DNA from: Oligoflexales bacterium
Lineage (GTDB): Bacteria; Myxococcota_A; UBA9042; DTJE01
Direction of reading: 5' to 3'
Assembly (NCBI GenBank): GCA_012840965.1
Contig: DUVQ01000103.1
Span: forward strand, 291 to 64,290
Length of the DNA stretch: 64,000 nt
In this document: piece by piece, positions 4,278-59,569 of the stretch
Numbering within the stretch: position 1 is the first letter of the stretch
How the letters are laid out: each line of letters opens with the position of its first letter
Notes under the pieces: generated by a model
What the model was told of the DNA's origin: nothing
The model's database searches: none
The model's input: the letters and a program-made list of their open reading frames with translations, nothing else
Program-made: the position numbers and the translations under genes

Positions 4278-4293
4278 TTGTACCCCCGTTTTT

Positions 4294-4397
4294 GACCCTG
4301 CTAATTAGCATGTTTTAGCTCCCAATTGTTTGTTCTTTGTTGCGTTTTATCTCTTCGTTACAGTTTTAAAACATGTCCGGGGGCATCCTTCCGGCCC
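4294..4397 (+). repeat. 104-nt dispersed non-coding element, copy A
   Basis: Aligns without gaps to the reverse complement of 39733-39836 (15 mismatches in 104 nt by hand count). Followed by a C-rich hexamer tract. Confidence 0.85.
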
Positions 4398-4464
4398 CGG
4401 CCCCTGTCCCTGCCCCGCCTTTGGTACTATACTCATAACTGGACCTTTGCTGTCCCTAGCTCCT

Positions 4465-5889
4465 ATGGCACAGGAGACTGGCGTGTTGGATCAATGGCTA
4501 ATCCTAATTTTGTCGGGGCTGTTAGTTGTTACAGCCATTGGTTTTTCCACTCACATCTTGCTGAACAAACGCAATCCGTACGCTGCGGCTTGGTGGCTGA
4601 CCCTTATTTGGTTTGTTCCAGTTATCGGGATGTTGTTGTATTGGGGATTTGGCGTCAATAGGGTTGCCAGAAAGGCCAGAAAGCGTAAAAAACCAAAAGT
4701 TGCGCCTGGTACTCCAAACAAAAGGGATGTGCCTGATGACCTGCTACCCCTTCTGCATGCCGGAGAGCACCTGTGCCCATGGCCTTTAGCACCTAACAAC
4801 GCCATCGAGCTTTTGAGAGACGGCGACGAAACTTACCCAGCAATGTTGCAAGCCATTGAAGGCGCCCAAAAAACGATTGGGATGGTTACCTATATTTTTG
4901 ACGAGGATGAGGCCGGCCTCAAATTCGAAAAAGCCTTGATGGACGCTGCCGCCAGGGGGGTTAAAGTCAGACTCCTGGTCGACGGCCTTGGCGCTATTGG
5001 TATCGGTCCCAGGCTCCATCGCACCTTGCCAAAGGCCGGGGGAAAGGTAGCCTCCTTTTGGCCTAGGGGGCGTTGGCTTAAACACCCAGGGATAAACCTT
5101 CGAAATCACCGCAAAATTCTGGTTGTTGATGGAACGATTGGCTTTACTGGTGGACTTAATATCTCCAGCAAGCACGTCTCAAGGTCAAAAACGATTGGCC
5201 CTGAATCTAATGACCTCCACTTCAGGCTGCGTGGTCCAGTTGTTTCGCATCTGGTGGAAGCCTTTTTGGACGACTGGGAGCTTGCCACTGGTGAAGTACT
5301 AAAGGGGCCAAATTGGTTCCCAGAGCTTCCACACGCTGGAACTATCATGGCGCGCGGTTTTCCTTCTGGTCCAGAGTTTGAAGAGGCTCCCCTTCACGAA
5401 CTGCTTTTAAGTGCTGTGCGCACCGCCAAAAAGCGCGTTGATTTGATGTCCCCGTATTTTATTCCAGATGCCGCTTTATTGGCGCTGATGCGAACCGCCA
5501 GCCGTTCTGGGGTCAAAGTCCGCTTGGTGATACCCAAGAAAACGGACCATCCTTTTATGGCTTGGGCCGCACGGGCTTACTTGCCAGAACTGGTTGCATG
5601 TGGGGTGGATGTCTGGGAGGTGGCGGGCGATTTTGTACACGCAAAACTGGCCGTTGTTGATAATCACTGGGTGATGTTTGGCTCAGCCAATCTCGATAAT
5701 CGAAGTTTTCGCCTTAATTTTGAATTTAACGTCGAGGCATGGTCAGCAGATTTGGCCAGACGGGTGATGTCCTACATCAACCATTACCAGGGTAGGTCCA
5801 CCAAAGTGACTAGAAAGACTTTGCGCAAAGAACCAGTGGCGATACGTCTGCGAAACCAAGCCATCAAACTGTTTTCCCCACTTTTGTAA
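4465..5889 (+). CDS. cls: Cardiolipin synthase (phospholipase D family)
   Basis: N-terminal TM segments with AAWWLTLIWFVPVIG.LLY; two HKD motifs (NHRKILVVD, HAKLAVVD); GSANLDNRS..LNFE. Start moved to ATG 4465 because the longer ORF reads through the repeat element. Confidence 0.9.
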   Translation: MAQETGVLDQWLILILSGLLVVTAIGFSTHILLNKRNPYAAAWWLTLIWFVPVIGMLLYWGFGVNRVARKARKRKKPKVAPGTPNKRDVPDDLLPLLHAGEHLCPWPLAPNNAIELLRDGDETYPAMLQAIEGAQKTIGMVTYIFDEDEAGLKFEKALMDAAARGVKVRLLVDGLGAIGIGPRLHRTLPKAGGKVASFWPRGRWLKHPGINLRNHRKILVVDGTIGFTGGLNISSKHVSRSKTIGPESNDLHFRLRGPVVSHLVEAFLDDWELATGEVLKGPNWFPELPHAGTIMARGFPSGPEFEEAPLHELLLSAVRTAKKRVDLMSPYFIPDAALLALMRTASRSGVKVRLVIPKKTDHPFMAWAARAYLPELVACGVDVWEVAGDFVHAKLAVVDNHWVMFGSANLDNRSFRLNFEFNVEAWSADLARRVMSYINHYQGRSTKVTRKTLRKEPVAIRLRNQAIKLFSPLL

Positions 5890-5922
5890 TACAATGCTCA
5901 GGCCCGCTTTTTTAGAGGCCCC

Positions 5923-7299
5923 ATGAGTAGTGCAAACAATAACGACTCGGCAGCAGGCGATAAACCTGCCGGCCAAGACCGCGTAGCTGGCGACCTGGCC
6001 CAACACGGTTGCTCAATGACGGGCTTTGTTTTCCAGCTTGCAGGCATGCCTGGCCGTTTGTCCATCGTGATATTTGGAGAGCGTGATTGCGCCAACGCCA
6101 TGCCCAGACTTAGGGCCAAAACAGCCTCTGACCCAGAATGGAACGTCTTTTCTGCACATATCTCTGAGTCGGATGTTGTTGCTGGAACAGCTGAAAAGAC
6201 GTTGGAAGAGTGCCTTCGAGCGGTGGCTGCCCCTCGATGGGTCCCACCTGGTGAATTTTTGCCCCCCGAGGGCATTATCGTGGTCTCGACCTGCCTTTCC
6301 GAGATGATTGGCGCCGACCCAAAGCCCGTTTGCGAGCTGGTTGAAAGGGAAACAGGCGTTAAAATAGTGCCAGTTGCAACTAGCGGCCTAAAACTTAGAA
6401 CCCAGCCTGAGGTTGCAGATTGGGTCGCCAAAACCATGATTACTGAGTTTGGCAAATTTTCCGAGCCGGACCAAGATGCCATCAATCTGATTGGTTATTC
6501 CACGGACCCAGTCGAAAACCCCCAGGATTTACATCGCACATTCCAAGGTGAGGTCAGTCAGGCTTTAAAGCCAGCTGGACTGAGGGTCAATGCCCAAGCG
6601 CCAATTGGAGCGTCCTTGGATGACTGGCGCAATTTGCCCACGGCTGGGCTTTCTGTAGTCATCGATCAAGTCATGTATGACAACCTGTTGCAATTGCTTG
6701 AAAGGCCAGGGCACATCGTCTTGGAATTGCCTCAACCATATGGTTTAGCCAAAACTGACGCCTTTTACCAGGCGATAGCTAAAGCGACAGGTAGACCCCT
6801 TGAAGAAGGCTTGGCACAACTTGATGCAAGGCAGGCTGCTGTCGAGGCTTTGGCCCGCGCCAAGAGCAAATTTACAGGCAAGCGGCTCGCTTATGGAATC
6901 GGCTCGCATCATAACTTCAGGCCAGATGATTTGGCCTCTGAGGGCCTTGGGGCCCTGCCTCTTATGCTGGAGATGGGGTTTGAAGTCGAGATTGTAATCC
7001 AGGAGCGTGATCGTCCCGACGTCCATGACAGGATCAAGCGCAATCTGGCTGCTCTTAACATCGATTTACCCTACCGTCTGTTTTATGAACCGGCGGTGCT
7101 GGCCCCCGTTTTGCTGGAAGGGAAGTTTGATGTTGGCTATCTATCAGACTTTTTGATGGGACAGGCGACTTCAGTGCACCTGCCGACGGTTCCATTGGGG
7201 CGTTTGCTGCCAGGTTATCGCGGTATTCCAAGAGCTGTAAGCAAATTTGAAAACATTGCAGGCTCAATCTTTGAAGGGCGCTACAAAAAGTACCTCTAA
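5923..7299 (+). CDS. Nitrogenase component 1-like oxidoreductase, alpha-type subunit (NifD/BchN/BchY fold)
   Basis: Three cluster-ligand Cys at NifD-like spacing: C30 (HGCSMTG), C56 (GERDCAN), C124 (STCLSEMIGAD). ESDVVAG resembles NifD EKDIVFG. C-terminal PGYRG. Confidence 0.8.
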   Translation: MSSANNNDSAAGDKPAGQDRVAGDLAQHGCSMTGFVFQLAGMPGRLSIVIFGERDCANAMPRLRAKTASDPEWNVFSAHISESDVVAGTAEKTLEECLRAVAAPRWVPPGEFLPPEGIIVVSTCLSEMIGADPKPVCELVERETGVKIVPVATSGLKLRTQPEVADWVAKTMITEFGKFSEPDQDAINLIGYSTDPVENPQDLHRTFQGEVSQALKPAGLRVNAQAPIGASLDDWRNLPTAGLSVVIDQVMYDNLLQLLERPGHIVLELPQPYGLAKTDAFYQAIAKATGRPLEEGLAQLDARQAAVEALARAKSKFTGKRLAYGIGSHHNFRPDDLASEGLGALPLMLEMGFEVEIVIQERDRPDVHDRIKRNLAALNIDLPYRLFYEPAVLAPVLLEGKFDVGYLSDFLMGQATSVHLPTVPLGRLLPGYRGIPRAVSKFENIAGSIFEGRYKKYL

Positions 7300-7308
7300 G
7301 GGGGATTA

Positions 7309-8619
7309 ATGCAAGCTAACCATCCAGACTTGGAAAAATTCAGACTAAGGCCTGTTGATCATACTGATTTGTTTGGGATTTTTATGGGGGTTCACGCGAT
7401 TCCCAACACGGTAATGCTCCTGCACACTACAGTCGGCTGTAAATTTAAGACCCAAATGCATCTAGTGGACCACGATTGGTTTTCAGAATCCCATAATCAA
7501 CGGCTTTGGACTGGTGTTGATGACGTCCGCCTGATTCAAGGGTCTGGCAAACGTTTGCTGCAATTTGCCACCACCTGGTATGAAAGACGGCATCCAGAAT
7601 TGTTTGTTGTCACAACCAACGCCGCCATTGAGCTTTCAGCATTCGACGTCGAGGCCGCCGTTCAGGAATTGCAGGCCACGCTTCCGTGTCCGGTGATTTT
7701 GCTTAAAGCACCAGGCCATGAAGGCTCATATCAGCGTGGTTATCGTCGTTTCATCGAAGCGATTTGTGAGCTGGTTGATTGGGATGTTAAACCCCAGGAA
7801 AAGCGCGTGTCTTTGGTGGGTTATCTGTTTGACAGATTTGAAATGGATCACGCGGCTAATCTTAGCGAAGTGCGGCGTCTGCTTTTGGCTGCTGGTCTTG
7901 AACCTGGTGTGAATCTGCTGGAAGGCCGCAAGCTCGGCGTCTTGGCCAACGTGGCAAAATCGCAAATAATCGGGGTGTTGCCCCTTGCCAAACCCATGAT
8001 TTCCTCCTTTGAAAAGTTGCCGGATCGCAAAATCGTTTCCTTGGACCTGCCCATCGGTTTAAATGGGACGGCCCAATTCTTGCGAACCTTGGTGGCAGCG
8101 GCCGGTGGTAATTTAGACGAGCTGGAAACTGTAATTGATCGCGAAATGGCCAGGGCAGTGCCTTTGATCGCCCATGGGGCTAGGCGTCTTAAAGGTACGC
8201 GAGTGGCCATTTTTCAAGATACCCCGACGGCAATTGCTTTGGCGGCATTTTTATGGGAACTGGACTGCGAAGTCCCCTTGGTGGCCCTCTCAGAGACCGA
8301 GCCTGTTGACCCTCAAGTGTTTTTTGATGGGATTGAGCGCCTTGGTGTGAAATTCGCTAACCAACCGGTTGTATTATCAAATGCTTCAAGGGATGGTGGG
8401 CTTGCCGAGTACAGACGGCTTGTTGAAGAGGACCCAATTCCGGTGGTGATTGGCTCTTCCCTACAGAAGGCCGCACTTGGCGCTGGTCAGGCCGCAGTCA
8501 TTGAACTTGGATATCCTTCAGTTTACAAACACAGCCTGTTTCCCGTGCCATGGCTTGGTTTTAACGGTGCTTTAGCGCTCGTTCAACGTTTAGTTGACGC
8601 CCTAAATTATGCTTTTTGA
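7309..8619 (+). CDS. Nitrogenase component 1-like oxidoreductase, beta-type subunit (NifK/BchB/BchZ fold)
   Basis: G..MGVHAIPN.VMLLHTTVGC (C44), LDLPIGLNGTAQFLR, ELGYPS...H...P.LGFNGAL.LVQRL. Starts 9 nt after the alpha subunit, with GGGGA RBS. Confidence 0.85.
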   Translation: MQANHPDLEKFRLRPVDHTDLFGIFMGVHAIPNTVMLLHTTVGCKFKTQMHLVDHDWFSESHNQRLWTGVDDVRLIQGSGKRLLQFATTWYERRHPELFVVTTNAAIELSAFDVEAAVQELQATLPCPVILLKAPGHEGSYQRGYRRFIEAICELVDWDVKPQEKRVSLVGYLFDRFEMDHAANLSEVRRLLLAAGLEPGVNLLEGRKLGVLANVAKSQIIGVLPLAKPMISSFEKLPDRKIVSLDLPIGLNGTAQFLRTLVAAAGGNLDELETVIDREMARAVPLIAHGARRLKGTRVAIFQDTPTAIALAAFLWELDCEVPLVALSETEPVDPQVFFDGIERLGVKFANQPVVLSNASRDGGLAEYRRLVEEDPIPVVIGSSLQKAALGAGQAAVIELGYPSVYKHSLFPVPWLGFNGALALVQRLVDALNYAF

Positions 8620-8654
8620 GTTACAGTAGGTGTGGCAACGGAGTTTAGGCAGCC

Positions 8655-9665
8655 GTGAATGGTAGCGACAAATTGTTGGGAGTGGTTTTAAACGACGATT
8701 TTAGGGTCGTCCGCCAAATTGGCTTTGGTGGCTATGCAAAAGTGTACGCAGCCGAGCAGTTGTCGGTAGGAAGGCGCATTGTTGCAATCAAGGTGCTGCA
8801 CGCTATGCACGGCGACATCTCGGCTGCCGTTGGCGGACTGAAACGGGAGGCCGCCTACCTGGCTTTACTTAGAAGCTACTGCTTTCCCAGGATATTTAGG
8901 ACTGGAGCTACGCCAGAAGGTCTGCCGTACTTTGTGATGGAACTGGTTTCAGGTCGAGCCCTGGATGTGGCCATCAAAGAATCTGGCCCCTTATCCCTTG
9001 AGGACGCTGCCCCTGTCCTGGACTCTTTGATGGAGGGTATCGCTGAGATGCACTCCAAGGAAATCATTCATAGGGACATAAAGGCTGGCAACGTTATCCT
9101 TGAAGAAGACGCTGGTTTTGGTGCCAGGGTCAAGATGCTTGACCTTGGAAGTGCAAAATCTGCACATGAAGCGGACCAGCCAATTGCCGCAGCCAACCAG
9201 TTGTCGATTGGTAGCCCACCATATCTGGCTCCAGAAACGGCTATTGCTGGAACTACTAGCGAATTTTCAGACATTTATAGCCTTGGGGCGCTTGCCTACG
9301 AGACTCTTTGTGGAATTCGCGCCCTCCACCTTAAGGAAACAAACCCTGAATCCTATTACGATTATTTAAGGTCTGACAAGGCGATTCCCACCTATCGAGT
9401 TGGCACCATCCAGCCCAATATTCCAGAGGCAGTCGAGGAGGTCATTCATAGGGCTTTGGCCAGAAAGCCTCAGGATCGTTGGTCCTCAGTTGCTGAGTTT
9501 CGCAGTGCGTTTTTTCATGCGGTGCAACCGTGCATTGGCCTTGGCGCCGACAAGCTTCTGCTAAGAGCGGCTGGAGTTCATGGAAATCACAATGAGCGCT
9601 GCTCAAGATCCAAAAATAGTGGCGGTCTTAAGGCTATTCTCCCCTTGCGCTTCCGCAAACGGTGA
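8655..9665 (+). CDS. Hanks-type Ser/Thr protein kinase (soluble catalytic domain only)
   Basis: GFGGYAKVY, VAIK, HRDIKAGN, DLG (DFG variant), GSPPYLAPE, SDIYSLG. No TM segment seen. Confidence 0.9.
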   Translation: MNGSDKLLGVVLNDDFRVVRQIGFGGYAKVYAAEQLSVGRRIVAIKVLHAMHGDISAAVGGLKREAAYLALLRSYCFPRIFRTGATPEGLPYFVMELVSGRALDVAIKESGPLSLEDAAPVLDSLMEGIAEMHSKEIIHRDIKAGNVILEEDAGFGARVKMLDLGSAKSAHEADQPIAAANQLSIGSPPYLAPETAIAGTTSEFSDIYSLGALAYETLCGIRALHLKETNPESYYDYLRSDKAIPTYRVGTIQPNIPEAVEEVIHRALARKPQDRWSSVAEFRSAFFHAVQPCIGLGADKLLLRAAGVHGNHNERCSRSKNSGGLKAILPLRFRKR

Positions 9666-9766
9666 TTAAATTTCATTCGTCAGGGGCGACAAGGCTGGTC
9701 GCTTTCGTGGCATGTTTAACCCATAAAGTCTGGTGAAATCGGACGGTTTTTGAAAAGGAGTATGAA

Positions 9767-10060
9767 ATGAAGCTCAGGCCATTGCATGATCGTATCGTCG
9801 TTAAGCGAGCTGAATCGGAAGAATTAACAGCTGGTGGACTATACATTCCAGAAACTGCAAAGGAAAAGCCTCAGCAAGCGGTTGTTGTGGCCGCCGGTCC
9901 TGGAAGGGCTCTCGATAATGGTCAGATTCGCCCCCCAAGTGTAAAGGTTGGGGACCGTGTTTTGTTCAGCATGCACGCTGGACGTGAAGTCAAAGTTGAT
10001 GGCGAAACCTATCTAATTATGTATGAAGACGATGTGTTGGCAGTCCTTGAGGACAGGTAG
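9767..10060 (+). CDS. groES: Co-chaperonin GroES
   Basis: MKLRPLHDRIVVKR, GGLYIPETAKEKP, VGDRVLF, EDDVLAV; AAGGAG RBS. Confidence 0.98.
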   Translation: MKLRPLHDRIVVKRAESEELTAGGLYIPETAKEKPQQAVVVAAGPGRALDNGQIRPPSVKVGDRVLFSMHAGREVKVDGETYLIMYEDDVLAVLEDR

Positions 10061-10083
10061 AACCAACCTAAAAGAAATTGTGA

Positions 10084-11748
<1,665 letters not shown>

Positions 11749-11765
11749 TTTAAAATCCAATGGTT

Positions 11766-11807
11766 ATCGCCAGCACCAGCGTCCAATAGGAGTCTGGTGT
11801 TGGCGAT
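11766..11807 (+). terminator. Stem-loop after groEL (possible terminator or mRNA stabiliser)
   Basis: ATCGCCAGCACCAG / CTGGTGTTGGCGAT, a 14-bp stem with one G-U pair. No clear U-tract. Confidence 0.55.
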
Positions 11808-11876
11808 GCCAATTGCATAACCCTGCAATTTAGAGTAGCATCGCCCCCGGTCGTTTTCGACTTAAGGAGATGATTA

Positions 11877-11978
11877 ATGGGCAGAAATTCCATCAGTAAG
11901 GTTCGTTCCAGACGGATTCGCCAAGCAAAGCACAAAGCAAGGCTGAAACGAAAAATCGAAGCTGCCAAGAAAAGTTAA
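11877..11978 (+). CDS. 33-aa highly basic small protein (MGRNSISKVRSRRIRQAKHKARLKRKIEAAKKS)
   Basis: AAGGAG RBS 7 nt before ATG 11877; TAA at 11976-11978, 5 nt before the HIT gene. Below the ORF-track length cutoff. Confidence 0.7.
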   Translation: MGRNSISKVRSRRIRQAKHKARLKRKIEAAKKS

Positions 11979-11983
11979 TCGTT

Positions 11984-12325
11984 ATGGACGATTGCATTTT
12001 TTGTAAGATAGCGTCTGGCGAAATCCCGGCGAAGGTTGTGTTCCAAGACGATCATGTCTTTGCGTTTCACGATATAAACCCTGTCGCTCCAGTTCACATC
12101 TTGGTTATCCCCAAGAAGCATCTGGCCTCGTTGAGTGAGGCTGACCCTGGTGACCAAGAACTTCTTGGGAGGGTGCTGGCAGGGGCCAAAAAGGCAGCCG
12201 AGATTGCTGGGGTCAGTAAGACTGGTTTTCGCACGGTAATCAATACTGGTAAGAGTGCTGGCCAATCAGTATTTCACCTTCATGCTCATGTCATCGGTGG
12301 CAAAGAGCAAGGCTGGCCGCCATAA
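11984..12325 (+). CDS. Histidine triad (HIT/Hint) nucleotide-binding protein
   Basis: DCIFCKI, AFHDINPVAPVHILVIPKKH, GQSVFHLHAHVIGG. Confidence 0.95.
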   Translation: MDDCIFCKIASGEIPAKVVFQDDHVFAFHDINPVAPVHILVIPKKHLASLSEADPGDQELLGRVLAGAKKAAEIAGVSKTGFRTVINTGKSAGQSVFHLHAHVIGGKEQGWPP

Positions 12326-12530
12326 CCCCCCTATTGGCTTCAGATAATCCTCGTATAAATCTGTGACTTTAGTCTAGGACTTGACTATTGCTCCTATCGT
12401 GACCAGTTTGGTGTGCAGTCGAGGATTCATGGTTGGAATCTCGGCTTCGCTGGCGCGGTCCTCCTTTGCCGTAAAAGGGGTACGGCGCCATCGAGAAAAT
12501 TAAAACTTAAAACTCGAAGGAGCCCGTTCA

Positions 12531-12971
12531 ATGAAAAACAAACGTCCTGCTTATCTTTCCGCAAAGTCACTATCTTCTGGCCAGCAAAAAAGCTTGGTCA
12601 AAAACGTGTCAGATGCCTCCTTTGATGCCGAGGTTTTAGGGTCTGACCTGCCAGTATTGGTGGACTTTTGGGCCCCTTGGTGCGGCCCATGCAAGATGGT
12701 TGGCCCAATCGTCGAGGAACTGGCCAAGGAATATGAAGGCCGCCTTAAGGTGGTTAAGATTAACACCCAGGATAATCCTGGCGTCCCTGGCCAAATGGGC
12801 GTGCGTTCCATTCCCACCCTGATTATCTTCAAGGGCTCAGAAGTCGCGGATCACCGGGTCGGAGCGGCTCCAAAAGAGAGTTTGCGCCAGATGATCGAAG
12901 GCGTTTTAAACCCCAAACCAAGCCTTTTTGGGCGTCTTTTTGGTGGCAAACAAAAAGCTGAAGAGGCCTAA
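12531..12971 (+). CDS. trxA: Thioredoxin with short N- and C-terminal extensions
   Basis: [26 protein letters not shown]. Confidence 0.93.
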
Positions 12972-13269
12972 TCGCTTATTTTGGCCCCTGCCGTTTCGCG
13001 ACCCGATTCCCCGCCAAATCAATTTTGTCATTGAATTCATTACGAATATCTGAGAATCATGATCTCCAAAAGTAGGTAAAAGTTTTTTGACCTCAAAAAA
13101 TCGATTTTGGTGCTGCTGCCAAGATTAGGCGGGGATTATTGGCTGAACTAATTCTGTGTGCCTCAGCCTTTCACTGTGTTAAACTGGAAGCCTTGTCGGT
13201 TATTGTAACGGCGTCCGGCGTTTTGTCCGGCTGCCATACCGCAACGAAAGAGACGGGAGGAAATCGATC

Positions 13270-16176
13270 ATGAGGAACTTGTCTTGCGTTGTTGGCATTT
13301 TGGGCTTGGCTTCCATGATTGTCGCTTGCGGCGGCTCTGGCTTACCCACGGACGACCTTCAATCCGGCACTGACTCCCCTGCGGACGACCTACAAACCGG
13401 CCGTGACACCCCCACTAGCGACCTCTACCCCGGCCGTGACTTCTCCACTATCGACTTTTACCCCGGTGGAGAAATATCAGAAATGAGCGTTGTTTTGAAT
13501 GTGGAAGACTTCTCACCGGATGGAATGCCTCGAAAGGATGAACCGGTAACATCCGGAGTGCCGATCCCCCAATCTGTCGGAATTTACAATAAGGACCATT
13601 TCGTTTTGACAGACAGTCTCGGGACTCCCTTACCGGCTCAATTCAAGGTCTTATCCAGATGGAACGGGCAGCCGAATGAAGAAACAAAACCTATCAAATG
13701 GCTGTTAGTGGATTTCCAGGCGAATGTGCAGCCTGGTGAAACAGCCCAATACACATTGACAACAGGTCAAAGGACATTGCCTGAAGTACAGATAGATATC
13801 ACTGATAATGAAAGCAATATTGTTGTTGATACAGGCAGCGCCATATTTGAGATTAATCGCAACTATTTCAACCTGTTTGACAGAGTCACAGTAAAAAACA
13901 ACAGTACGCTGCTAGTGGACCAGGCTGGAAAAGGCGGCATTACCCTCATCGATGGTAAAGGAAAAGAGTTTTCAACTCTGCTATCCGCCCCTGAAGACAT
14001 CACAATAGAAGAAAGCGGACCACTTCACAGCGTTATCAATATCCGTGGAGTATTCAAGGCCAAAGACGGCTCTTTTTTCGCGCCATCTATCAAGGATTAT
14101 GGTGATGATCCAAAATGGCCCAGATATAAACAGCCATATCCGAACTCCTTTTTTTACTATAACTGCAGAATGCATTTTTACGCCGGGAAATCGTATGTGA
14201 AGGTTTTTCTAACAATTGAAAATAATGGTTCTAATGGAAGAACAAACCCTGAACAGAATTACGCTCCCATACAAATGGTGACTTTTGACCGGATTGGGTT
14301 GAACCTGAATTTGCTTGAGCAGCCGTCAACGCGGTTTATCTCAAACGATTTGGATGTGCCGTTAACTAAAAATGACCATCTAACGATATTTCAAAATTGG
14401 AAAGAGAATTCGGACCCTTCCCGAAGCACTTTACTGGAACCGTCCTTCGTGAACGGCCCTTATTATGATGCCACTTTAAATGGTGAGGGGAAGCAGCACG
14501 GTCAACTGCATCCAGGGTGGATGAGAATAGCAGGTGAAAATGGTGGTGTCGGGCTCTATATGCGGCATTTTTGGCAAAATTATCCCAAAAAACTCGGCGG
14601 CACACCTGCCACAATGACGATCGATTTATGGCCGGCGGAGGGCTACTATCCGTACGCCAGAAGCGAGTCTTTCCCTGAACGCGAATGGGATGACTACCTG
14701 CGTAAGGCCGGGAAACATGCCGGGCTATATCTTTTTGATGCAGGGAGGCATAAGACCCATGAATTTATTCTTGATTTCGCAAAATCCGGGGATCAGGGCG
14801 CCTCTTCATCCATGTTATCCACACTTTCCTATCCCTTGATGGCTCTGGCGCCGGCCAATTGGTTTGTTGAAAGCGGTGCATTAGGGCTGATCGCGCCTAG
14901 CGGTCTTTCAAATGAGGCGGAGCCGGAAGTTAATGAAGCAATGCAGCGTTTTGATCAATTGCAGCTTGCTATGGTTGATGAAGAGGTAGCTCAGAATGGG
15001 TGGACAATCAATAATTTAAAGACCGCAATTGAACCTCATTGGAATTATCCACCTCAATGGAAGTATTTTGGATGGATGAATTTTGGGGATATGTTGTGGG
15101 AAGGACAAGTGCCGTCATCTTTACATTATGATTGGCCGTACAGCATGCTGTTACACTACGTCAGAACCGGAGAAAGAAAACTCTTTGATACTGCTGTAGA
15201 AATGGTGAAGCACCGGTATGACGTTGATCAGTATCATGGGGACAGGACAGATAAACAGGGAAATCATGTTTATATCAACGGCATGTCTTTTTATGAAATA
15301 GATGGACATGCGGACCCGAGTGTATGTATGAACAACCCATCCCGGATTTCCATGAACAGCCACACATGGAATGGAGGTTTGGTTTTATACTATCTTTTGA
15401 CTGGAGACCAAAAAGCGTGGGAAGCTGCTGTGGAAAACGGAATAGCGGCTTCTGCCCTGCTGGCGAAATTGTCCGAGACTCTTTCTTGTGCGGATGCCGA
15501 GCTGCGTCAAGAGACCTGGCCCATTTTGAATCTCGTTAACTTATATCGAGCAGATGGTAATCCTGAATATTTGCGCGTCGCCAAAAACATTGCGGTAAAT
15601 CGGGTCCTCTACAGAGAACAAGAAGTGGGTAAAAGAGGCAATTTCGGACGTCAAACATGCGATCTTCAAGCTGGAAAAAGCGAAGCAAGTGTTATGTTGG
15701 CCTATTCCATCGACCCTCTTATTCAGATACATCATGAAACTCAAGATCCTCAAATTGCCAGTTTGATTGTCCGAATGGCAGAATATACCAAAAATATGTT
15801 TCTTTTTGGCGGAGACACAAACGATGAAGGTCAATATAGACCATTGCAAAGTTTATTTATCTGGTACGAGGATCGACCCAATGAAGGGAAGGGCGAACCC
15901 GTGAAAAACTTGTTTTGGGCTGACTTGTTTTCATATGCCTTTAGAATAACAAAGGAATCTAAATATCTTGAATGGGCAAGGCAAGCATTCAGAGATGGAA
16001 TGTTTTACTACACTATGCTTGGGGGTACTTATGTTGACCCTTCCAGCCGTGCTCGCATCGGTTTTATTGATGGTGGATTTCCAAATAGTGAATCAAAAGT
16101 ACACGGTTGGATGGGAAGGACAAATCAAGTCTATTTAAATACCGAATATGAACTTTTGAAGGCCGCTTCAGAGTGA
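13270..16176 (+). CDS. Lipoprotein of the PcRGLX/YetA-like (RIFT-barrel, exo-rhamnogalacturonan lyase-like) family
   Basis: Lipobox MIVAC; EPVTSGVPIP..LPAQFKVLSRW..KWLLVDFQA; EESGPLHSV; C-terminal helical region with FGD..LHYDWPY..HYVRTG. Confidence 0.7.
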   Translation: MRNLSCVVGILGLASMIVACGGSGLPTDDLQSGTDSPADDLQTGRDTPTSDLYPGRDFSTIDFYPGGEISEMSVVLNVEDFSPDGMPRKDEPVTSGVPIPQSVGIYNKDHFVLTDSLGTPLPAQFKVLSRWNGQPNEETKPIKWLLVDFQANVQPGETAQYTLTTGQRTLPEVQIDITDNESNIVVDTGSAIFEINRNYFNLFDRVTVKNNSTLLVDQAGKGGITLIDGKGKEFSTLLSAPEDITIEESGPLHSVINIRGVFKAKDGSFFAPSIKDYGDDPKWPRYKQPYPNSFFYYNCRMHFYAGKSYVKVFLTIENNGSNGRTNPEQNYAPIQMVTFDRIGLNLNLLEQPSTRFISNDLDVPLTKNDHLTIFQNWKENSDPSRSTLLEPSFVNGPYYDATLNGEGKQHGQLHPGWMRIAGENGGVGLYMRHFWQNYPKKLGGTPATMTIDLWPAEGYYPYARSESFPEREWDDYLRKAGKHAGLYLFDAGRHKTHEFILDFAKSGDQGASSSMLSTLSYPLMALAPANWFVESGALGLIAPSGLSNEAEPEVNEAMQRFDQLQLAMVDEEVAQNGWTINNLKTAIEPHWNYPPQWKYFGWMNFGDMLWEGQVPSSLHYDWPYSMLLHYVRTGERKLFDTAVEMVKHRYDVDQYHGDRTDKQGNHVYINGMSFYEIDGHADPSVCMNNPSRISMNSHTWNGGLVLYYLLTGDQKAWEAAVENGIAASALLAKLSETLSCADAELRQETWPILNLVNLYRADGNPEYLRVAKNIAVNRVLYREQEVGKRGNFGRQTCDLQAGKSEASVMLAYSIDPLIQIHHETQDPQIASLIVRMAEYTKNMFLFGGDTNDEGQYRPLQSLFIWYEDRPNEGKGEPVKNLFWADLFSYAFRITKESKYLEWARQAFRDGMFYYTMLGGTYVDPSSRARIGFIDGGFPNSESKVHGWMGRTNQVYLNTEYELLKAASE
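13345..13476 (+). repeat. Four degenerate 33-nt (11-aa) tandem repeats after the lipobox
   Basis: PTDDLQSGTDS / PADDLQTGRDT / PTSDLYPGRDF / STIDFYPGGEI. Confidence 0.75.
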
Positions 16177-27547: not shown

Positions 27548-29419
27548 ATGAGAAAGCTAATTTCACAACTTTGTCTCTGGTTTGCCCTTTGCCTGGTCGG
27601 GTTGTTACCGGCTGCTAACACCAAAGCTCAATCCTCGGAGATTATCGCTGTCTTCGAGATTGAAAGGCGGGGAGTTCCTTTAAAAGCAGCCACGATGGCG
27701 AATCTAAACGACTACATGTATGGTCGTTTGGCATTTGCTGGTTTCAAACTCACCCCCCAAAGTCAAGTTCGAGAGCGCGTTGTCAGTCTCAAACGTGAGT
27801 CCCGCAAAGACTGTTATGACCAATCCTGCCAAATCGAACTTGGCAAGGCTGTATCCGCCCACAAATCATTATCCAGCCGGCTGATTAAAATTGGCGATGT
27901 GTGCTCGTTACAATCACAGATATACGACCTCAAAACAGAAACCACCGAAATGGGGGCCGAGGCGAAAGGCCCCTGCACTGAAAAGGGTATAGCGGCCTCC
28001 ATCGACCAAGTCGTTGCCATATTCAAAGGCGGCGTTGTAGCGCCAGCACAGCCAGTTCAAGATTTGGACAAAGGCGGTGGTTCAGCCAAGATCACCAGCT
28101 CGCCGTCTGGAGCCGAAGTGTGGCTCAACGATGAATTCATAGGCATAACACCCCATATAATCCCTGAAAAGCCGTCCGGTACCTACAAATTACGCCTTGA
28201 ATTACCCGACTATGTCTCCAACGAAGCGACTTTGGTGATCAAGAAGGGTAAAGAGACCATACATCACCGAGAATTGGCCTCTAATTGGGGAAAAATCAGC
28301 ATTTCAAGCTCCCCCACCGGCGCCACGGTTTATCTGGACGATGTACTGGTGCCAAATCTAACAACTCCCTGTGTTTTGGACCGCGTCGCTCCCGGAGTAC
28401 ACGTCGTCAAGTTTTTCCTTGCCGGCCACAGCGAGGGCACAGCAAGGACAAGCGTCATTCGCGGCAAGACAGCGTCAGTAGCAGCAAAACTAGAACCAAT
28501 GTGCGGTCGTTTGGTAGTGTCGTCCAGCTACGGCGGCGGCAGTAAGTGCGAAGGCAATCTAAAGATCGACGGCCAAATTGTAGGCCGCACTCCCTGGCAA
28601 GGAGACGTCTCAGCCGGCTCCCACACAGTCGAGGTACAGTGCCAAAACGGCAAGGCCAGCCAACAGGTTACAGTCGCGCACAATGGTCGTTCAGAGCTGA
28701 ACATTTTGATTGAAACCTGTCCTGGTGACTGGTGTTTGATTCCCGGTGGTAGTTCTAATATGGGGTCTAATGATGGCGATGATGACGAAAAGCCAGTTCA
28801 TCGAGTAACTGTACGAACGTTTGAAATGACAAAGACTCAGGTGACGGTCGAGCAGTACAAAGCTTGTGTTGATGCTGGTGTCTGCACAGCTCCTGATACT
28901 GGGGATTATTGTAACTGGGGCCAATCTGATCGTGGCAAGCATCCTATAAACTGCGTTGATTGGCACCAAGCTCAAGCCTATGCTAAGTGGGCTGGTGGTC
29001 GTTTACCCACAGAGGCAGAATGGGAGTACGCAGCCCGCAGTGGTGGTCGTGATTGGAAGTATCCTTGGGGCAATGAAAATGCTACTTGTGAGCGTGCTGT
29101 AATGTACGATGGTGATTTGGGTTGCGGCCGTGAAAGTACCTGGCCAGTTTGCAGCAAGCCGAGAGGCAACACTACTCACGGCTTGTGCGATATGGCAGGC
29201 AATGTTTGGGAGTGGGTTCAGGATTGGTACCATGACAGTTACAAAGGTGCACCAACTGATGGCTCAGCTTGGGAAAAGCCGACAGGCTCTAGCCGGGTTG
29301 ATCGCGGCGGTTCCTGGGGCAACGGCGCCGGGAGCGTGCGGGCGGCGATTCGCAACCACGCCTCGCCCGGCTACCGCCACGACACCCTCGGGTTTCGCCT
29401 TGCCAGAGATTCGCTGTAG
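27548..29419 (+). CDS. Secreted PEGA x2 + FGE-sulfatase (SUMF1/CLec-fold) protein, paralog 1
   Basis: Signal peptide; two PEGA domains (SSPSGAEVWLND, SSPTGATVYLDD); MGS..E.P.H.V, GRLPTEAEWEYAAR, DMAGNVWEWVQDWY, RGGSW...GFRLAR. Confidence 0.92.
   Translation: MRKLISQLCLWFALCLVGLLPAANTKAQSSEIIAVFEIERRGVPLKAATMANLNDYMYGRLAFAGFKLTPQSQVRERVVSLKRESRKDCYDQSCQIELGKAVSAHKSLSSRLIKIGDVCSLQSQIYDLKTETTEMGAEAKGPCTEKGIAASIDQVVAIFKGGVVAPAQPVQDLDKGGGSAKITSSPSGAEVWLNDEFIGITPHIIPEKPSGTYKLRLELPDYVSNEATLVIKKGKETIHHRELASNWGKISISSSPTGATVYLDDVLVPNLTTPCVLDRVAPGVHVVKFFLAGHSEGTARTSVIRGKTASVAAKLEPMCGRLVVSSSYGGGSKCEGNLKIDGQIVGRTPWQGDVSAGSHTVEVQCQNGKASQQVTVAHNGRSELNILIETCPGDWCLIPGGSSNMGSNDGDDDEKPVHRVTVRTFEMTKTQVTVEQYKACVDAGVCTAPDTGDYCNWGQSDRGKHPINCVDWHQAQAYAKWAGGRLPTEAEWEYAARSGGRDWKYPWGNENATCERAVMYDGDLGCGRESTWPVCSKPRGNTTHGLCDMAGNVWEWVQDWYHDSYKGAPTDGSAWEKPTGSSRVDRGGSWGNGAGSVRAAIRNHASPGYRHDTLGFRLARDSL
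29294..29407 (+). other. Candidate DGR variable region (VR)
   Basis: Abrupt shift to GC-rich codons. All 11 codons at positions where DGR templates carry AAC end in C, and they differ from AAC only at the A positions. Confidence 0.6.
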
Positions 29420-30130
29420 AACGGTAAAGAGTTGGGAATGAAAGAGTCCTACGATGAAGGTTTAGCGAGCCACATCGGCCCCGAGTCATGCGGGTATGAT
29501 GGTAACGTCATATTCGAAGCGTTGACAGGGGGAAATGCAGGCAGGGTATTGAGCCTCGAAATGGGCGGAATAGTTCTGAGCGCCGACGTACTCCGCGCAT
29601 ACGGAAGGCAACACTGGATACACCGCAAACGCGAGGTGTAACCGGGCTCGGCGGGGTCCTAGACCCCTTGCATGCATGGAAACTCTTTACACGGGATGCA
29701 GGAGGTCCCGGTCTTTGTCCACCGAGAGATTGCGCGGTGGACGGCACGGAAAACCCGTAAGGGGTACAGCCGTGAGGTACGAGACCGGGAAGTCGGACAG
29801 TTTCATAGTACCGGAGAATCACATGAACAAAGCAGCAACAGCATTGGAGGGAGCACAACGGGGGGAAGGACTTAGCCGGACATCCGCAGTTCCTGAACCG
29901 ACGTCAAAGGCTGTGGCGGAGTGTGAGGAGGGAAGGGAACTGGCCAAGGGGAATCCGGTAGGGCAATACAGGGACTGGACACAGAGCCGGTTCACCCTGC
30001 AAAGAGCGCTCGACTGGATACGGCAGGCCGCAAGTCTGCGCGTCTGACCCAAGGCAGGAGCCCGGTGCGGTAGTTCCGCACGCCGGGATCTGTGCGGGGG
30101 GTGGCCCGTAAGGGCCATTCCTACCGCGAC
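29408..30130 (+). mobile_element. ORF-less (RT-deleted) group II intron, IIB-like, 723 nt
   Basis: Domain V GAGCCCGGTGCGGTAGTTCCGCACGCCGGGATC at 30058 (AGC triad, AC bulge); domain VI ending CCTACCGCGAC with bulged A at -8; domain I-type blocks (GAAGGTTTAGCGAGCCACATCGGCCCCGAGTCATGCG, GGGAAGTCGGAC..ATAGTACC); only the N-terminal stub of the intron ORF remains (..GKSDSFIVPE..ELAKGN..TQSR..ALDWIRQAA-SLRV*). The 5' boundary is inferred. Confidence 0.88.
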
Positions 30131-30153
30131 TCGGTGCGCTAGATCCTTGGTCT

Positions 30154-30210
30154 GCGCCCCTGTTGGCCAGGCGACAGCGCAGCGTAGGCGCCAATGGCCA
30201 ACAGGGGCGC
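30154..30210. other. Long GC-rich stem-loop just downstream of the intron / reconstituted stop codon
   Basis: Perfect 16-bp inverted repeat GCGCCCCTGTTGGCCA (30154-30169) / TGGCCAACAGGGGCGC (30195-30210), with further GGCG/CGCC pairing inside the loop. Confidence 0.8.
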
Positions 30211-30405
30211 CCGGAGTTGCGCGTCAGCAGCTTGAGGTCGGATTTTTTTGCCTCCCCCCCATCACCATTGCGAAACCGCGTGTTTGAGAAAACAGTTCCG
30301 AGATTCTTGTTTCGACGGGCACAGGAGCAGCGCCAGCGCGGGTTTCCCTGTTGACGTTTGAGGGGGGTTATGGTAGCCAATTGCTGTCTGTGATTGGGGT
30401 ATGCC

Positions 30406-31350
30406 GTGAAGCGTGTTTTTGAGTTTGTCCTGTTTCTGGTTGCTGTTTTCTATTCTGGCTCGGTTTTTAGTCAGGCTGCCGCTGTTGACATTGAATGGGT
30501 GCGGATTCCAGGTGGTAGTTTTATAATGGGCTCCAGTGGCAAGGACGCTGAAGAAGACGAAACTCCCGCTCATAAAGTAAACGTCCCAGAATTTGAAATG
30601 AGCAAAACTCTAGTAACCCTTGATCAGTATAAGGCCTGCGTCGATGCAGGTGTGTGCGAGACCCCGGATACTGAAGAAGGCTGTAATTGGGGAAAATCAG
30701 ATCGCGGAAACCATCCCATAAATTGCGTCGACTGGGAGCAAGCTCAAGCCTTTGCCACTTGGGCTGGAGGTCGTTTGCCCAGCGAGGCTGAATGGGAGTA
30801 TGCGGCTCGAAGCGCCACCCGTGGCTGGAAGCATCCTTGGGGGAATAAACGAGCAAATTGTTCGCTGGCCGTAATGACGGAATCAAGTAAACGACAAGGC
30901 TGTGGCAATGACGGCACTTGGCCTGTTTGCAGCAAGCCAAAAGGCAACACAGCTCAAGGGTTATGCGATATGGCCGGCAATGTAATGGAGTGGGTCCGGG
31001 ATTGGTATTACTACGGCTACAAAGGTGCCCCAAAGGATGGTTCAGCCAGGGAGGTAAAGGGAAGCCCATACAAGGTTTGTCGCGGCGGCTTCTGGGGTGG
31101 CCACGCCAGGAACATGCAAGCAGCTGTTCGTGTATACTACCCACCAGAGTTTCGCGAAAACTTCATAGGCTTCCGCATCGCTAGACCTGTGCCAGCCAAA
31201 CATCCCGAGCCTAGAGATAAATTGGACGGCGATCTTGGACCGGACAGCGATGTTAGCCCGGACAGCAATGTTAGACCTGTGCCACCTAGTCCCCAGGATT
31301 TTGCCCCTAAAAACCAATCCAAGAAAATGTTTGAAACTTTCATAAAATGA
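30406..31350 (+). CDS. Secreted FGE-sulfatase (SUMF1/CLec-fold) protein, paralog 2
   Basis: GTG start by alignment with paralog 3 (VKRVFEFV / MKRVFQFV); GRLPSEAEWEYAAR, DMAGNVMEW, RGGFW..GFRIAR; Pro/Asp-rich tail. Confidence 0.9.
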   Translation: MKRVFEFVLFLVAVFYSGSVFSQAAAVDIEWVRIPGGSFIMGSSGKDAEEDETPAHKVNVPEFEMSKTLVTLDQYKACVDAGVCETPDTEEGCNWGKSDRGNHPINCVDWEQAQAFATWAGGRLPSEAEWEYAARSATRGWKHPWGNKRANCSLAVMTESSKRQGCGNDGTWPVCSKPKGNTAQGLCDMAGNVMEWVRDWYYYGYKGAPKDGSAREVKGSPYKVCRGGFWGGHARNMQAAVRVYYPPEFRENFIGFRIARPVPAKHPEPRDKLDGDLGPDSDVSPDSNVRPVPPSPQDFAPKNQSKKMFETFIK

Positions 31351-31369
31351 AAGTATCCTACATTTTATG
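31331..31369 (+). promoter_or_regulatory. Putative sigma70 promoter and inverted-repeat operator of the AbiE operon
   Basis: TTGAAA-17-TATCCT ending 8 nt before the ATG; interlocked IRs ACTTTCAT/ATGAAAGT and CATAAAATG/CATTTTATG, the latter covering the start codon. Confidence 0.6.
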
Positions 31370-32877: not shown

Positions 32878-32904
32878 CGGCCAGCCGGTTGTGAGCTAAT
32901 GTGG

Positions 32905-33000
32905 GGGCAGGAACAGGTACAGGACCAGGGGCAGGGACAGGATCAGGGACAGGATCAGGATCAGGGACAGAACCAGGACCAGGATCAGGCACAAGAACCG
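32905..33000. repeat. Tandem array of 16 degenerate GNNCAG hexamers
   Basis: gggcag gaacag gtacag gaccag gggcag ggacag gatcag ggacag gatcag gatcag ggacag aaccag gaccag gatcag gcacaa gaaccg. Confidence 0.9.
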
Positions 33001-33097
33001 CACAAGCCTCAAGAACTAGGCGGGGCCGGCCGTTTCTGTGTTGACGGCCCATGGTGGTTGTGATAACCAACTCTTTGTCCTCAATTGGGACCATGCA

Positions 33098-35693: not shown

Positions 35694-35764
35694 GTCGCTA
35701 CCTGAGCATCCGTTAACCACGGTGCTTTTGCCCTCCATGCTGTAATGTGTGCTTTCGGTATCAT
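35678..35764 (-). pseudogene. Truncated AbiEii toxin remnant (first ~22 codons only)
   Basis: ATGA overlap with the antitoxin stop; MIPKAHITAWRAKAPWLTDAQV is the typical N-terminus of this AbiEii subfamily, then runs into the hexamer tract and stops (ATCPRP*). Confidence 0.75.
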
Positions 35765-36543: not shown

Positions 36544-36583
36544 GTGCACATCTTCCAGAAAACACGGCGTCAAGAATTGACTT

Positions 36584-42130: not shown

Positions 42131-42140
42131 AATCTAATCT

Positions 42141-59564: not shown

Positions 59565-59569
59565 TTGGT

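Follow-up and report, generated by a model that had tools for sequence, protein, structure and literature searches.

Which reductase does a nitrogenase-like gene pair belong to when its genomic neighbourhood offers no Fe protein, and where would its electrons come from? The window (the whole 64-kb stretch of DNA analyzed here) carries two adjacent genes for component-1-like subunits (Table 1), and a six-frame tblastn search of all 64 kb with a NifH query, approximate in that it was 88% identical to Pantoea NifH, found no NifH-like gene. Pfam scans of the window open reading frames of at least 150 aa, and of a few shorter ones, likewise found no Fer4_NifH, nif, bch, or cfb gene. This absence had been reported in an earlier note on the sequence, which described the pair as a stand-alone reductase with no Fe-protein partner. 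We conclude instead that the pair probably supplies the component-1 (D/K-type), catalytic part of a nitrogenase-like reductase of the Group VI type, with the NifH-like protein (H) encoded in trans.

Table 1. Genes of the locus and codons of the predicted cluster ligands, with positions in the window
Feature	Position	Strand	Remarks
Alpha (NflD-like) subunit	5923..7299	+	458 aa; PF00148 E 5.5e-39
Alpha C30 codon, predicted first cluster ligand	6010..6012	+	Equivalent to NifD C62, NifE C37, BchN C29, BchY C76
Alpha C56 codon, predicted second cluster ligand	6088..6090	+	FGERDC motif; equivalent to NifD C88, NifE C62, BchN C54, BchY C101
Alpha C124 codon, predicted third cluster ligand	6292..6294	+	STC motif; equivalent to NifD C154, NifE C124, BchN C115, BchY C159
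Beta (NflK-like) subunit	7309..8619	+	436 aa; PF00148 E 2.8e-46
Beta C44 codon, predicted fourth cluster ligand	7438..7440	+	Equivalent to NifK C94 (Av C95), NifN C44, BchB D36, BchZ C35
Ser/Thr protein kinase	8655..9665	+	336 aa, 36 nt 3' of beta; Pkinase E 3e-33
groES-groEL	9767..11748	+	NCBIfam GroES, GroEL; syntenic with the pair in one sub-lineage

The two genes encode a real alpha/beta nitrogenase component 1, as the earlier note had recognized. Both products match the PF00148 (Oxidored_nitro) profile far above chance. The open reading frames share a frame and are separated by 9 nt, with a GGGGGA Shine-Dalgarno sequence upstream of the beta ATG, and the two genes adjoin each other in every case within the family. 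Alpha homologues form 47 clusters, all with PF00148; Myxococcota or "Deltaproteobacteria" are the source of the few named clusters and of all 14 genome loci. AF2 models of alpha (pLDDT 86.1) and beta (pLDDT 87.3) both retain the three-domain Rossmann-like fold, whose loss in structure prediction the earlier note had named as a possible objection, with Foldseek TM scores of 0.68 to 0.80 to NifEN, NifDK, and BchNB across the two subunits. The best matches of alpha were NifE/NifEN entries (E of ~1e-19 to 1e-20, TM of ~0.7), and beta gave hits to NifK and NifN (TM of 0.76 to 0.80). Scores against NifEN, NifDK, and BchNB were nearly equal, with marginal differences.

Alignment to the Pantoea NifDKEN and Roseobacter litoralis BchNB and BchYZ sequences gave the ligand map in Table 1. 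C56 and C124 do not vary among 43 alpha homologues, and conservation of C30 is 90% or higher; alpha has two additional cysteines, C97 and C137. In beta, C44 lies within HTTVGC and is the sole invariant cysteine among 15 beta homologues, where it sits inside an invariant LHTTVGCKFKTQ motif, and the wider clade also retains it without exception, as part of GCKxK. The first and third ligand positions of beta, equivalent to NifK 70 and 153, are occupied by T19 and N104/A105, neither of which is cysteine; N104 is invariant in the same 15 homologues. This bears out the previously described arrangement of three alpha cysteines and a single beta cysteine. The reported lack of a NifD Cys275-type ligand was also upheld, with D248 aligned at that position and G426 at the position of H442, so that the FeMo-co ligands of true nitrogenases are missing. 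Of the six P-cluster cysteines (alpha 62, 88, and 154; beta 70, 95, and 153), four are present.

Judged by alignment, this 3+1 pattern is not unusual: it exactly matches the [4Fe-4S] ligand set of NifEN (NifE C37, C62, and C124 with NifN C44) and that of COR (three BchY cysteines with one from BchZ). It departs from the DPOR set, in that a cysteine replaces the aspartate at the position of BchB D36. DPOR and COR had both been cited in the earlier note, and the likeness to NifEN was absent from it. The exact match to NifEN and BchYZ predicts one inter-subunit [4Fe-4S] cluster. The identity of ligand sets with NifEN also speaks for a different role, that of a NifEN-like scaffold or maturase on which a cofactor would be made and then passed to a D/K-type pair, with a radical-SAM protein acting as NifB does. 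NifEN entries being the best structural matches of alpha would fit this role, which we nevertheless regard as improbable. The Foldseek differences are marginal, the equivalent of NifE C250 is Asp248, and the radical-SAM proteins of the system match HxsC, MoaA, SPASM, and twitch types, with NifB not among the matches. The window contains no NifB-like gene, and a review reports that NifB homologues are absent where Group VI systems are the only ones an organism has (PMC13474568).

By sequence scores, the pair falls outside NifDK, NifEN, BchNB, BchYZ, CfbD, and Mar, which agrees with the noncanonical clade proposed earlier. All NCBIfam equivalog scores were 56 bits or lower against cutoffs of 268 to 1229. 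For NifEN, they were 51.5 bits against 505 (TIGR01283) and 37 against 327 (TIGR01285); identity to NifEN is 15 to 19%, and the window pair differs further by the aspartate at the C250 position and by its surroundings, which contain no nifB, nifX, or any further nif gene, despite sharing the heterotetramer fold. The DPOR (BchNB/ChlNB) models gave 36 to 50 bits against 420 (TIGR01279) and 43 to 49 against 490 (TIGR01278), and the COR models gave 16 to 17.5 against 425 (TIGR02015, BchY) and 22 to 32 against 529 (TIGR02014, BchZ). No bch or puf genes, bchX, or other photosynthesis context occurs in the window. COR and DPOR have one inter-subunit [4Fe-4S] cluster as their sole cofactor and use it to reduce the substrate directly, as we predict for the window pair; COR has the same all-cysteine set, whereas DPOR has aspartate at the beta-subunit position. 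A tetrapyrrole substrate for Group VI is a published conjecture only.

The remaining component-1 families were also distant. The CfbD (Group IV-B) model scored 16.7 bits against 268 (TIGR03282), and the window has two distinct subunits and no cfb context. The best PDB chain scored 38 bits or lower, MarDK included (9d9u and 9fmg, with chains at 25 to 37 bits by phmmer), and the incomplete P-cluster ligands also set the pair apart from Mar/Isr (Group IV-C/F). MarDK and other Group IV NFL systems resemble the pair in being component-1 proteins of nondiazotrophic metabolism and in having, as the pair probably does, a NifH-like partner. However, Mar has a NifB-like partner, a P-cluster, and an L-like cluster ligated by His/Cys, and the window has none of the three.

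The nearest relatives are alpha/beta pairs of Elusimicrobia and other bacteria (28 to 34% identity). Window alpha scored 177 to 215 bits against the alpha/beta-like pairs of an Elusimicrobia MAG (L038) and of two further loci (L039 and L041), and window beta scored 223 to 256 bits against their beta-like proteins. Against the D/K-type subunits that accompany H in related operons, the scores were 38 to 71 bits for alpha and 93 to 127 bits for beta, and against Nif and Bch proteins they were at most 55 bits (beta to NifK). A neighbor-joining tree, built with capped distances and 60 bootstraps, recovered an alpha/beta-type clade that includes the H-linked members in 54 of 60 replicates; this clade joined the K-type proteins, to the exclusion of Nif and Bch references, in 49 of 60.

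Group VI was defined on a NifH tree (Méheust 2020, 10.1101/765248), in work that recorded its nifH in 14 Myxococcales genomes, with divergent D/K and radical-SAM genes as neighbors (10.1101/765248). Table S2 of that paper lists a Group VI nifH for the culturable Enhygromyxa salina SWB007. Group VI members retain no more than four of the six P-cluster cysteines, with C275 and H442 missing, and among the major branches of the nitrogenase superfamily, this group alone has no characterized member (PMC13474568). The window pair has these same features: highly divergent D/K-like subunits, a partial set of P-cluster cysteines, and neither C275 nor H442. Its clade also shares the taxa of Group VI, Elusimicrobia and Myxococcales. 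From the gene architecture, the Elusimicrobia relative (P0355, L038), and the genome list of Méheust, we infer that the clade of the pair is the Group VI ("Elusimicrobia paralog") lineage. That lineage had been named in the earlier note as a comparator only. Radical-SAM genes adjoin the pair in three relatives (L010, L038, and L039). None do so in the window, where the sole radical-SAM gene (58587-59564) is part of a Memo/AMMECR1 set.

The catalytic subunits of Group VI appear to be of two types. The alpha/beta type has a complete, NifEN/COR-like 3+1 site, the GCKxK motif, and no N-terminal extension. The D/K type, as found in H operons, has an incomplete site: its D subunit is ~610 aa long, carries an N-terminal extension of ~200 aa, and is missing the first cysteine. 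Because the D-type ligand set is incomplete, these proteins could be seen as recipients of a cofactor assembled on alpha/beta, as the scaffold role would have it.

In four independent genomes, relatives of the pair are linked to a gene for a NifH-like ATPase. In L010, an rSAM-K-D-H cluster is divergent from CoA-transferase-alpha-beta, with a gap of 48 bp, and in L038, H-K-D is divergent from alpha-beta. In L039, rSAM-alpha-beta is followed on the same strand by three further rSAM genes and H, and in L041, alpha-beta is convergent with H. Radical-SAM genes are present at three of these four loci (all except L041). One Myxococcales genome has a window-type pair 2.6 kb from an H-D-K-radical-SAM operon. 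The P-loop, switch I, Cys97, and Cys132 are intact in the H-like proteins, which are 41 to 64% identical among themselves versus 36 to 38% to NifH and BchL. Two pairs per single H, as in L010 and L038, would suit a scaffold that hands its product to a D/K-type pair. Against this, the 10-kb surroundings of alpha/beta and H in L039 and L041 contain no D/K-type pair; alpha/beta can therefore be the sole partner of H, a further difference from NifEN.

At 13 of 14 close-family loci, the exception being L010, H is absent from the available flank (up to 10 kb), and in another relative (L040) the pair is also unlinked from H. The window pair and most of its close family thus differ from other Group VI NFL systems in standing apart from nflH and radical-SAM genes. 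Nevertheless, unlinked pairs and H operons occur in the same MAGs at separate loci. Neighboring GenBank protein accessions place alpha HOU54383.1/HQK51516.1 with H HOU54979.1/HQK52338.1, and alpha NOZ01390.1 with H NOZ01997.1. A pair and an H operon also come from the same JGI sample (3300009689), and others from the same run (SRR11844784). Tetranucleotide correlations between pair locus and H locus were high (r = 0.99 for L001/L025 and 0.98 for L004/L021). This co-occurrence covers three or four MAGs, whose bins can be chimeric, and it could partly reflect shared taxonomy, given that the H family is far more widespread than the alpha/beta family (>120 versus 47 clusters).

Because related genomes encode an ATP-driven electron donor, either adjoining the pair or elsewhere in the genome, the pair is probably not a stand-alone enzyme, and the claim that it has no Fe-protein partner is not supported. 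The earlier note had said that its reading would fail if the pair were placed inside Bch, Cfb, or Mar clades with the reductase encoded elsewhere; relatives do encode the reductase elsewhere, but the placement is outside those clades. Reasoning from relatives to the window genome, we consider it most likely that a Group VI NflH acts in trans on the pair, which would be the catalytic component.

The other side of this argument is the gene that follows beta. Orthologues of the Ser/Thr kinase lie downstream of the pair in eight loci, with 53 to 70% identity versus ~30% to unrelated kinases. In six of the eight, the kinase comes directly after beta (from a 4-nt overlap to a 265-nt gap), and in two it lies ~2.5 kb downstream. 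The order alpha-beta-Ser/Thr-kinase(-groES-groEL) is conserved in Myxococcota; there, alpha/beta has left the vicinity of H for a locus that is linked to the kinase and inherited vertically. This stable separation, together with the kinase(-groESL) arrangement, is apparently undescribed; the Group VI literature examined contained no description of a split from H or of two subtypes. The kinase is a conserved operon neighbor that is probably cotranscribed with the pair and a possible regulator of it.

In about half of the 14 close-family loci, the pair keeps the kinase-groESL neighborhood with no H in the flank, which would also fit a role independent of H. Under such a role, alpha/beta would work without a NifH-like ATPase, with ferredoxin, flavodoxin, or a thioredoxin-type protein as its electron donor, possibly under kinase control. 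The absence of H from the window, from nearly all close-family flanks, and from the L040 locus favors it, and the orthologous kinase kept in eight loci suggests an independent regulatory unit. We still consider it unlikely: each characterized member of the superfamily requires an H-type ATPase (reviewed in PMC13474568), members of the clade are H-linked in four genomes, and H operons share MAGs with unlinked pairs. It is similarly doubtful that in the window lineage specifically the pair has become an ATP-independent [4Fe-4S] reductase, free of the NifH-like ATPase and wired to a dedicated Ser/Thr kinase. If H-independence were true, this would be the first catalytic component of the nitrogenase superfamily to work without an Fe protein, and the rule that an ATP-driven one is required for nitrogenase-like catalysis would fall.

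Separation from H could also mark a decaying or nonenzymatic Group VI remnant, retained by synteny alone after H was lost. This is very improbable. Both open reading frames are intact, all four ligand cysteines are conserved, and both folds were modeled with confidence. The two genes always adjoin each other in this family of 47 clusters, and the N-terminal domain of beta is extremely conserved, with ~50 invariant positions in residues 13 to 114 among loci that are 45 to 80% identical.

We therefore return to a catalytic pair supplied with H in trans. By homology, alpha and beta would form an alpha2beta2 tetramer. On the alignment, each alpha/beta interface would hold one [4Fe-4S] cluster, bound by alpha C30, C56, and C124 and beta C44. 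Because the pair has no ligands for a P-cluster, FeMo-co, or L-cluster, we expect an organic substrate to be reduced directly from the [4Fe-4S] cluster, as in DPOR, COR, and CfbCD, and no N2 fixation. The electrons would most likely be delivered, one at a time, by a Group VI NflH, an ATP-hydrolyzing NifH-like dimer. In this lineage, NflH would come from another locus, typically an nflH-D-K-radical-SAM operon. NflH may also serve the D/K pair of that operon, so that, as with NifEN, one H protein would have two pairs as partners. The downstream kinase may regulate the enzyme. Our leading guess for the substrate is a metabolite or cofactor intermediate made by the radical-SAM enzymes associated with the system. 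In a milder reading, one NflH may serve two catalytic pairs at separate loci, which would catalyze consecutive reduction steps on the way to a cofactor. For experiments, the locus offers a compact two-gene target with mutable ligand residues, a candidate partner in trans, and a candidate regulatory kinase.

Other neighbors of the pair were considered as partners and set aside. A GT-C/PMT_2 glycosyltransferase lies upstream in L004, L039, and L041 (GT-like in L040); the link is at the Pfam level only, and these proteins have no BLAST similarity among themselves or to other loci. A lipid theme, suggested by a cardiolipin synthase upstream in the window and a CDP-alcohol phosphatidyltransferase in L001, is not conserved across loci. 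Promoter and terminator scans performed at chance level overall and so carry little information on operon limits; a terminator-like hairpin lies between kinase and groES (9728-9744). For groESL, we note synteny with the pair and claim no functional link: the same order is found in L004, L009, and L018, and in L013 it extends up to groES, where the contig ends.

The window encodes two adjacent nitrogenase-like subunits, alpha (NflD-like) and beta (NflK-like), whose genes are separated by 9 nt, with a GGGGGA ribosome-binding site ahead of the beta ATG. Both matched the nitrogenase component 1 family (PF00148; E = 5.5e-39 for alpha and 2.8e-46 for beta). Neither approached an NCBIfam equivalog cut-off, with top scores of 51.5 bits for NifE (cut-off, 505) and 56 bits for NifK (cut-off, 427); scores for the BchN, BchB, BchY, BchZ, and CfbD equivalogs were all far below their cut-offs. 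Among sequences of solved structures, top scores were only 34 to 38 bits (BchB, NifE, and NifK), and methylthio-alkane reductase chains (9d9u and 9fmg) reached 31 to 37 bits. AlphaFold2 produced confident models (pLDDT of 86.1 for alpha and 87.3 for beta), and Foldseek matched both to nitrogenase-family structures only. NifEN entries topped the list for alpha (E of about 1e-19 to 1e-20, TM of about 0.7), while NifK and NifN topped it for beta (TM of 0.76 to 0.80). The component 1 fold is intact in both predicted structures.

Features of the window and of comparison loci (L-numbers) from other genomes; H, NifH-like ATPase (NflH); rSAM, radical SAM
Source	Feature	Positions	Description
Window	alpha	5923-7299	458-aa ORF; same strand and frame as beta
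Window	beta	7309-8619	436-aa ORF; same strand and frame as alpha
Window	FGE-sulfatase (SUMF1-like) domain proteins	27548-33871	three, one fused with PEGA domains
Window	AbiEii toxin gene	31981-32877	interleaved among FGE-sulfatase genes
Window	Memo-like gene	34794-35651	additional, stand-alone; unrelated to pair
Window	AbiEi antitoxin-like gene	35761-36573	
Window	HYDIN/ASH/Cep192-type Ig-like domain proteins	39998-47725	three, large; precede TPR protein
Window	giant TPR-repeat protein	47833-58587	3584 aa
Window	rSAM gene	58587-59564	325 aa
Window	rSAM gene, then Memo-AMMECR1 fusion (508 aa)	58587-61369	fused AmmeMemoRadiSam-type trio
L004	GT-C/PMT_2-type gene	6264-9695	just upstream of alpha/beta-type genes
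L010	D-type subunit	4552-6402	616 aa
L010	CoA-transferase	7277-9847	856 aa, two family-III domains; directly upstream of alpha, same operon
L021	D-type subunit	10872-12704	
L032 (GCA_029210625.1)	one NifH-like gene	5034-14630	two D/K-type pairs (612/465 and 789/479 aa) around it, with two rSAM genes
L038 (Elusimicrobia MAG)	H-K-D divergent from alpha-like - beta-like		rSAM gene nearby
L039	rSAM-alpha-beta-rSAM-rSAM-rSAM-H		all one strand
L039	GT-C/PMT_2-type gene	4285-6624	just upstream of alpha/beta-type genes
L040	solitary beta-like gene		without H
L040	GT-C/PMT_2-type gene	8395-9936	just upstream of beta-like gene
L041	alpha-beta convergent with H		
L041	GT-C/PMT_2-type gene	6766-8430	just upstream of alpha/beta-type genes

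We aligned the pair to the products of Pantoea nifHDKEN (L035) and Roseobacter litoralis bchNBL and bchXYZ (L036 and L037). Alpha C30/C56/C124 corresponded to NifD C62/C88/C154, NifE C37/C62/C124, BchN C29/C54/C115, and BchY C76/C101/C159, and beta C44 to NifK C94 (Av 95), NifN C44, BchZ C35, and BchB D36, confirming the 3+1 cysteine pattern that the earlier note had described for an alpha/beta pair. The two remaining NifK ligand positions fell on beta T19 and N104/A105, the NifD C275 and NifE C250 positions on alpha D248, and the NifD H442 position on alpha G426. Since this ligand set is identical to those of NifEN and COR (BchYZ), a single inter-subunit [4Fe-4S] cluster is predicted, and sites for a P-cluster, FeMo-co, and an L-cluster are predicted to be absent. 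Among 43 alpha homologues, C56 and C124 were invariant and C30 was at least 90% conserved; among 15 beta sequences, C44 was the sole invariant cysteine, within an invariant LHTTVGCKFKTQ motif, and residues 13 to 114 held about 50 invariant positions. Because it is conserved across homologues of both subunits, the ligand pattern is under selection. Such strong conservation contradicts the idea that the pair is a decaying remnant, which we regard as highly improbable. Other residues were also invariant or at least 90% conserved: beta K45, K47, H55, D56, and the FDRYExD motif throughout the whole clade, and alpha GSHHNF (327 to 332) and QERD (360 to 363) in the close family of window-type homologues. 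The alpha motifs align with NifD 356 to 359 and the region of about 381, which surrounds FeMo-co in nitrogenase. Together, these are candidate substrate-site residues.

The earlier note had also reported that the window lacks nif, bch, cfb, and NifH-like genes. In agreement, tblastn with NifH over the whole window found no NifH-like gene, and Pfam scans of its large ORFs found neither Fer4_NifH nor nif, bch, or cfb genes. The sole radical-SAM gene of the window adjoins a Memo-AMMECR1 fusion, belongs to that set, and is unrelated to the pair.

The close family comprised 47 alpha homologue clusters, all PF00148; every cluster with a named source traced to a MAG of Myxococcota or "Deltaproteobacteria". 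When GTDB species genomes were scanned, 14 loci emerged, all from Myxococcota and often Anaeromyxobacteraceae-like. Alpha adjoined beta in every locus of the close family. In eight loci, an orthologous Ser/Thr kinase lay downstream (53 to 70% identical to the window's kinase, versus about 30% for unrelated kinases), either directly after beta (six loci, with spacing between a 4-nt overlap and 265 nt) or about 2.5 kb away (L007 and L008), and groES-groEL came next after the kinase in four or five of the eight. This alpha-beta-kinase(-groESL) neighborhood is stable and vertically inherited. In base composition, the window organism stands out from the family: G+C content was 51.6% in the window, versus 55 to 74% at relatives' loci (L004 to L041), and reached 69% even at L006, whose alpha shares 75% protein identity with that of the window. 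One MAG, VGRB01 (L016, L019, and P0043), carried three alpha copies (FJ087_07735, _11955, and _20870), with beta adjacent at both copies checked (L016 and L019).

The local context of the pair agrees with an enzyme that works independently of any NifH-like protein, as the earlier note had proposed, but the relatives do not support that inference. The family locus L010 (Myxococcales bin-466) carries a NifH-like gene (PF00142; E = 3e-72) in an operon ordered H, D-like, K-like (459 aa), and double radical-SAM (1055 aa), divergent from a CoA-transferase-alpha-beta operon that starts 48 bp away. The H-D-K-radical-SAM operon was widespread in Myxococcota (nine operon loci read), and each of the 120 best-scoring NifH-like clusters shared at least 54% identity with the H protein of L010. 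Alpha and H were found at separate loci of the same MAG (HOU54383.1/HQK51516.1 with HOU54979.1/HQK52338.1, and NOZ01390.1 with NOZ01997.1); the former pair also occurred together in one JGI sample, and another alpha and H pair shared one sequencing run. Tetranucleotide profiles of alpha and H loci correlated at 0.99 and 0.98, the top match in each case. Given H-linked clade members and the co-occurrence of H with unlinked alpha/beta in the same MAGs, we consider a truly H-independent enzyme unlikely.

The D-type subunits of these operons (L010, L021, L025, L020, L032, and L038) are extended at the N terminus by about 200 aa and have Ala at the first cluster-ligand position, so that D/K-type pairs retain just three of the customary Cys positions; in some, QHCDxEC contains an additional Cys. 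L032 is a further case of several catalytic pairs per H. The CoA-transferase may indicate that a CoA thioester is the substrate in the L010 genome; no alpha-linked CoA-transferase gene was seen at other loci.

An exhaustive HMMER search with beta recovered 61 representatives at E < 1e-30 and 366 at E < 1e-10. The nearest group outside the close family (29 to 40% identity; common signature HxGVGCKxK...HD) includes Elusimicrobia, Deltaproteobacteria, and Myxococcota proteins. The alpha-like proteins of L038, L039, and L041 kept all three ligand cysteines and scored 177 to 215 bits against window alpha, and their betas scored 223 to 256 bits against window beta, versus 38 to 71 and 93 to 127 bits for D/K-type subunits and at most 55 bits for Nif/Bch. 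In a neighbor-joining tree of beta-type sequences (60 bootstraps), support was 59/60 for the window family, 54/60 for the alpha/beta-type clade including H-linked members, and 58/60 for the K-type clade. The alpha/beta-type and K-type clades together stood apart from NifK, NifN, BchB, BchZ, NifD, NifE, BchN, and BchY in 49/60. The earlier note's assignment of the pair to a non-canonical clade is supported. The clade-associated H proteins were 41 to 64% identical to one another, versus only 36 to 38% to NifH and BchL, and fell under every NCBIfam cut-off; they retain the P-loop, switch I, Cys97, and Cys132.

"Group VI" nitrogenase paralogues were defined in Elusimicrobia by Méheust et al. as having a NifH-like gene and highly divergent NifD/K-like genes without some P-cluster cysteines, in neighborhoods with many radical-SAM genes; 14 Myxococcales genomes, including cultured Enhygromyxa salina SWB007, carried Group VI nifH (10.1101/765248). 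A 2026 Chem Rev review describes at most four of six P-cluster cysteines, the loss of C275 and H442, and no NifB in organisms with Group VI systems only (PMC13474568). The window pair's clade displays the Group VI gene architecture, and the pair fits the sequence criteria as judged by published descriptions. What appears to be new is a Group VI sub-clade of the alpha/beta type whose NifEN/COR-like site is complete, as well as its stable relocation in Myxococcota, away from nflH and into an alpha-beta-kinase(-groESL) locus.

By homology, the pair would most likely form an alpha2beta2 tetramer with one [4Fe-4S] cluster per alpha/beta interface and with alpha C30/C56/C124 and beta C44 as the cluster ligands. 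An NflH dimer would hydrolyze ATP and reduce the tetramer one electron at a time, and an organic substrate may then receive electrons directly from the cluster, in the manner of DPOR, COR, and CfbCD. In the window's lineage, H would be encoded elsewhere and would probably also serve the D/K-type pair of the operon that contains it. A NifEN-like maturase serving the D/K-type pair would agree with the ligand pattern and with loci that carry two pairs; yet the C250 equivalent is missing, the radical-SAM proteins are not NifB, and loci with H and alpha/beta alone exist, making this role less likely still than H independence. At L039 and L041, alpha/beta is the only subunit pair that accompanies H, which suggests that alpha/beta itself acts as a catalytic partner and not merely as a NifEN-style scaffold. 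A tetrapyrrole substrate is a published idea founded on context only.

GT-C/PMT_2-type membrane glycosyltransferase genes lie just upstream at L004, L039, L040, and L041, in genomes distant from one another; we rejected a conserved link because these genes lack detectable mutual sequence similarity. Finally, P0195, an 899-aa protein whose residues 458 to 885 match beta, probably represents a naturally occurring alpha-beta fusion from the wider clade and could serve structure work.
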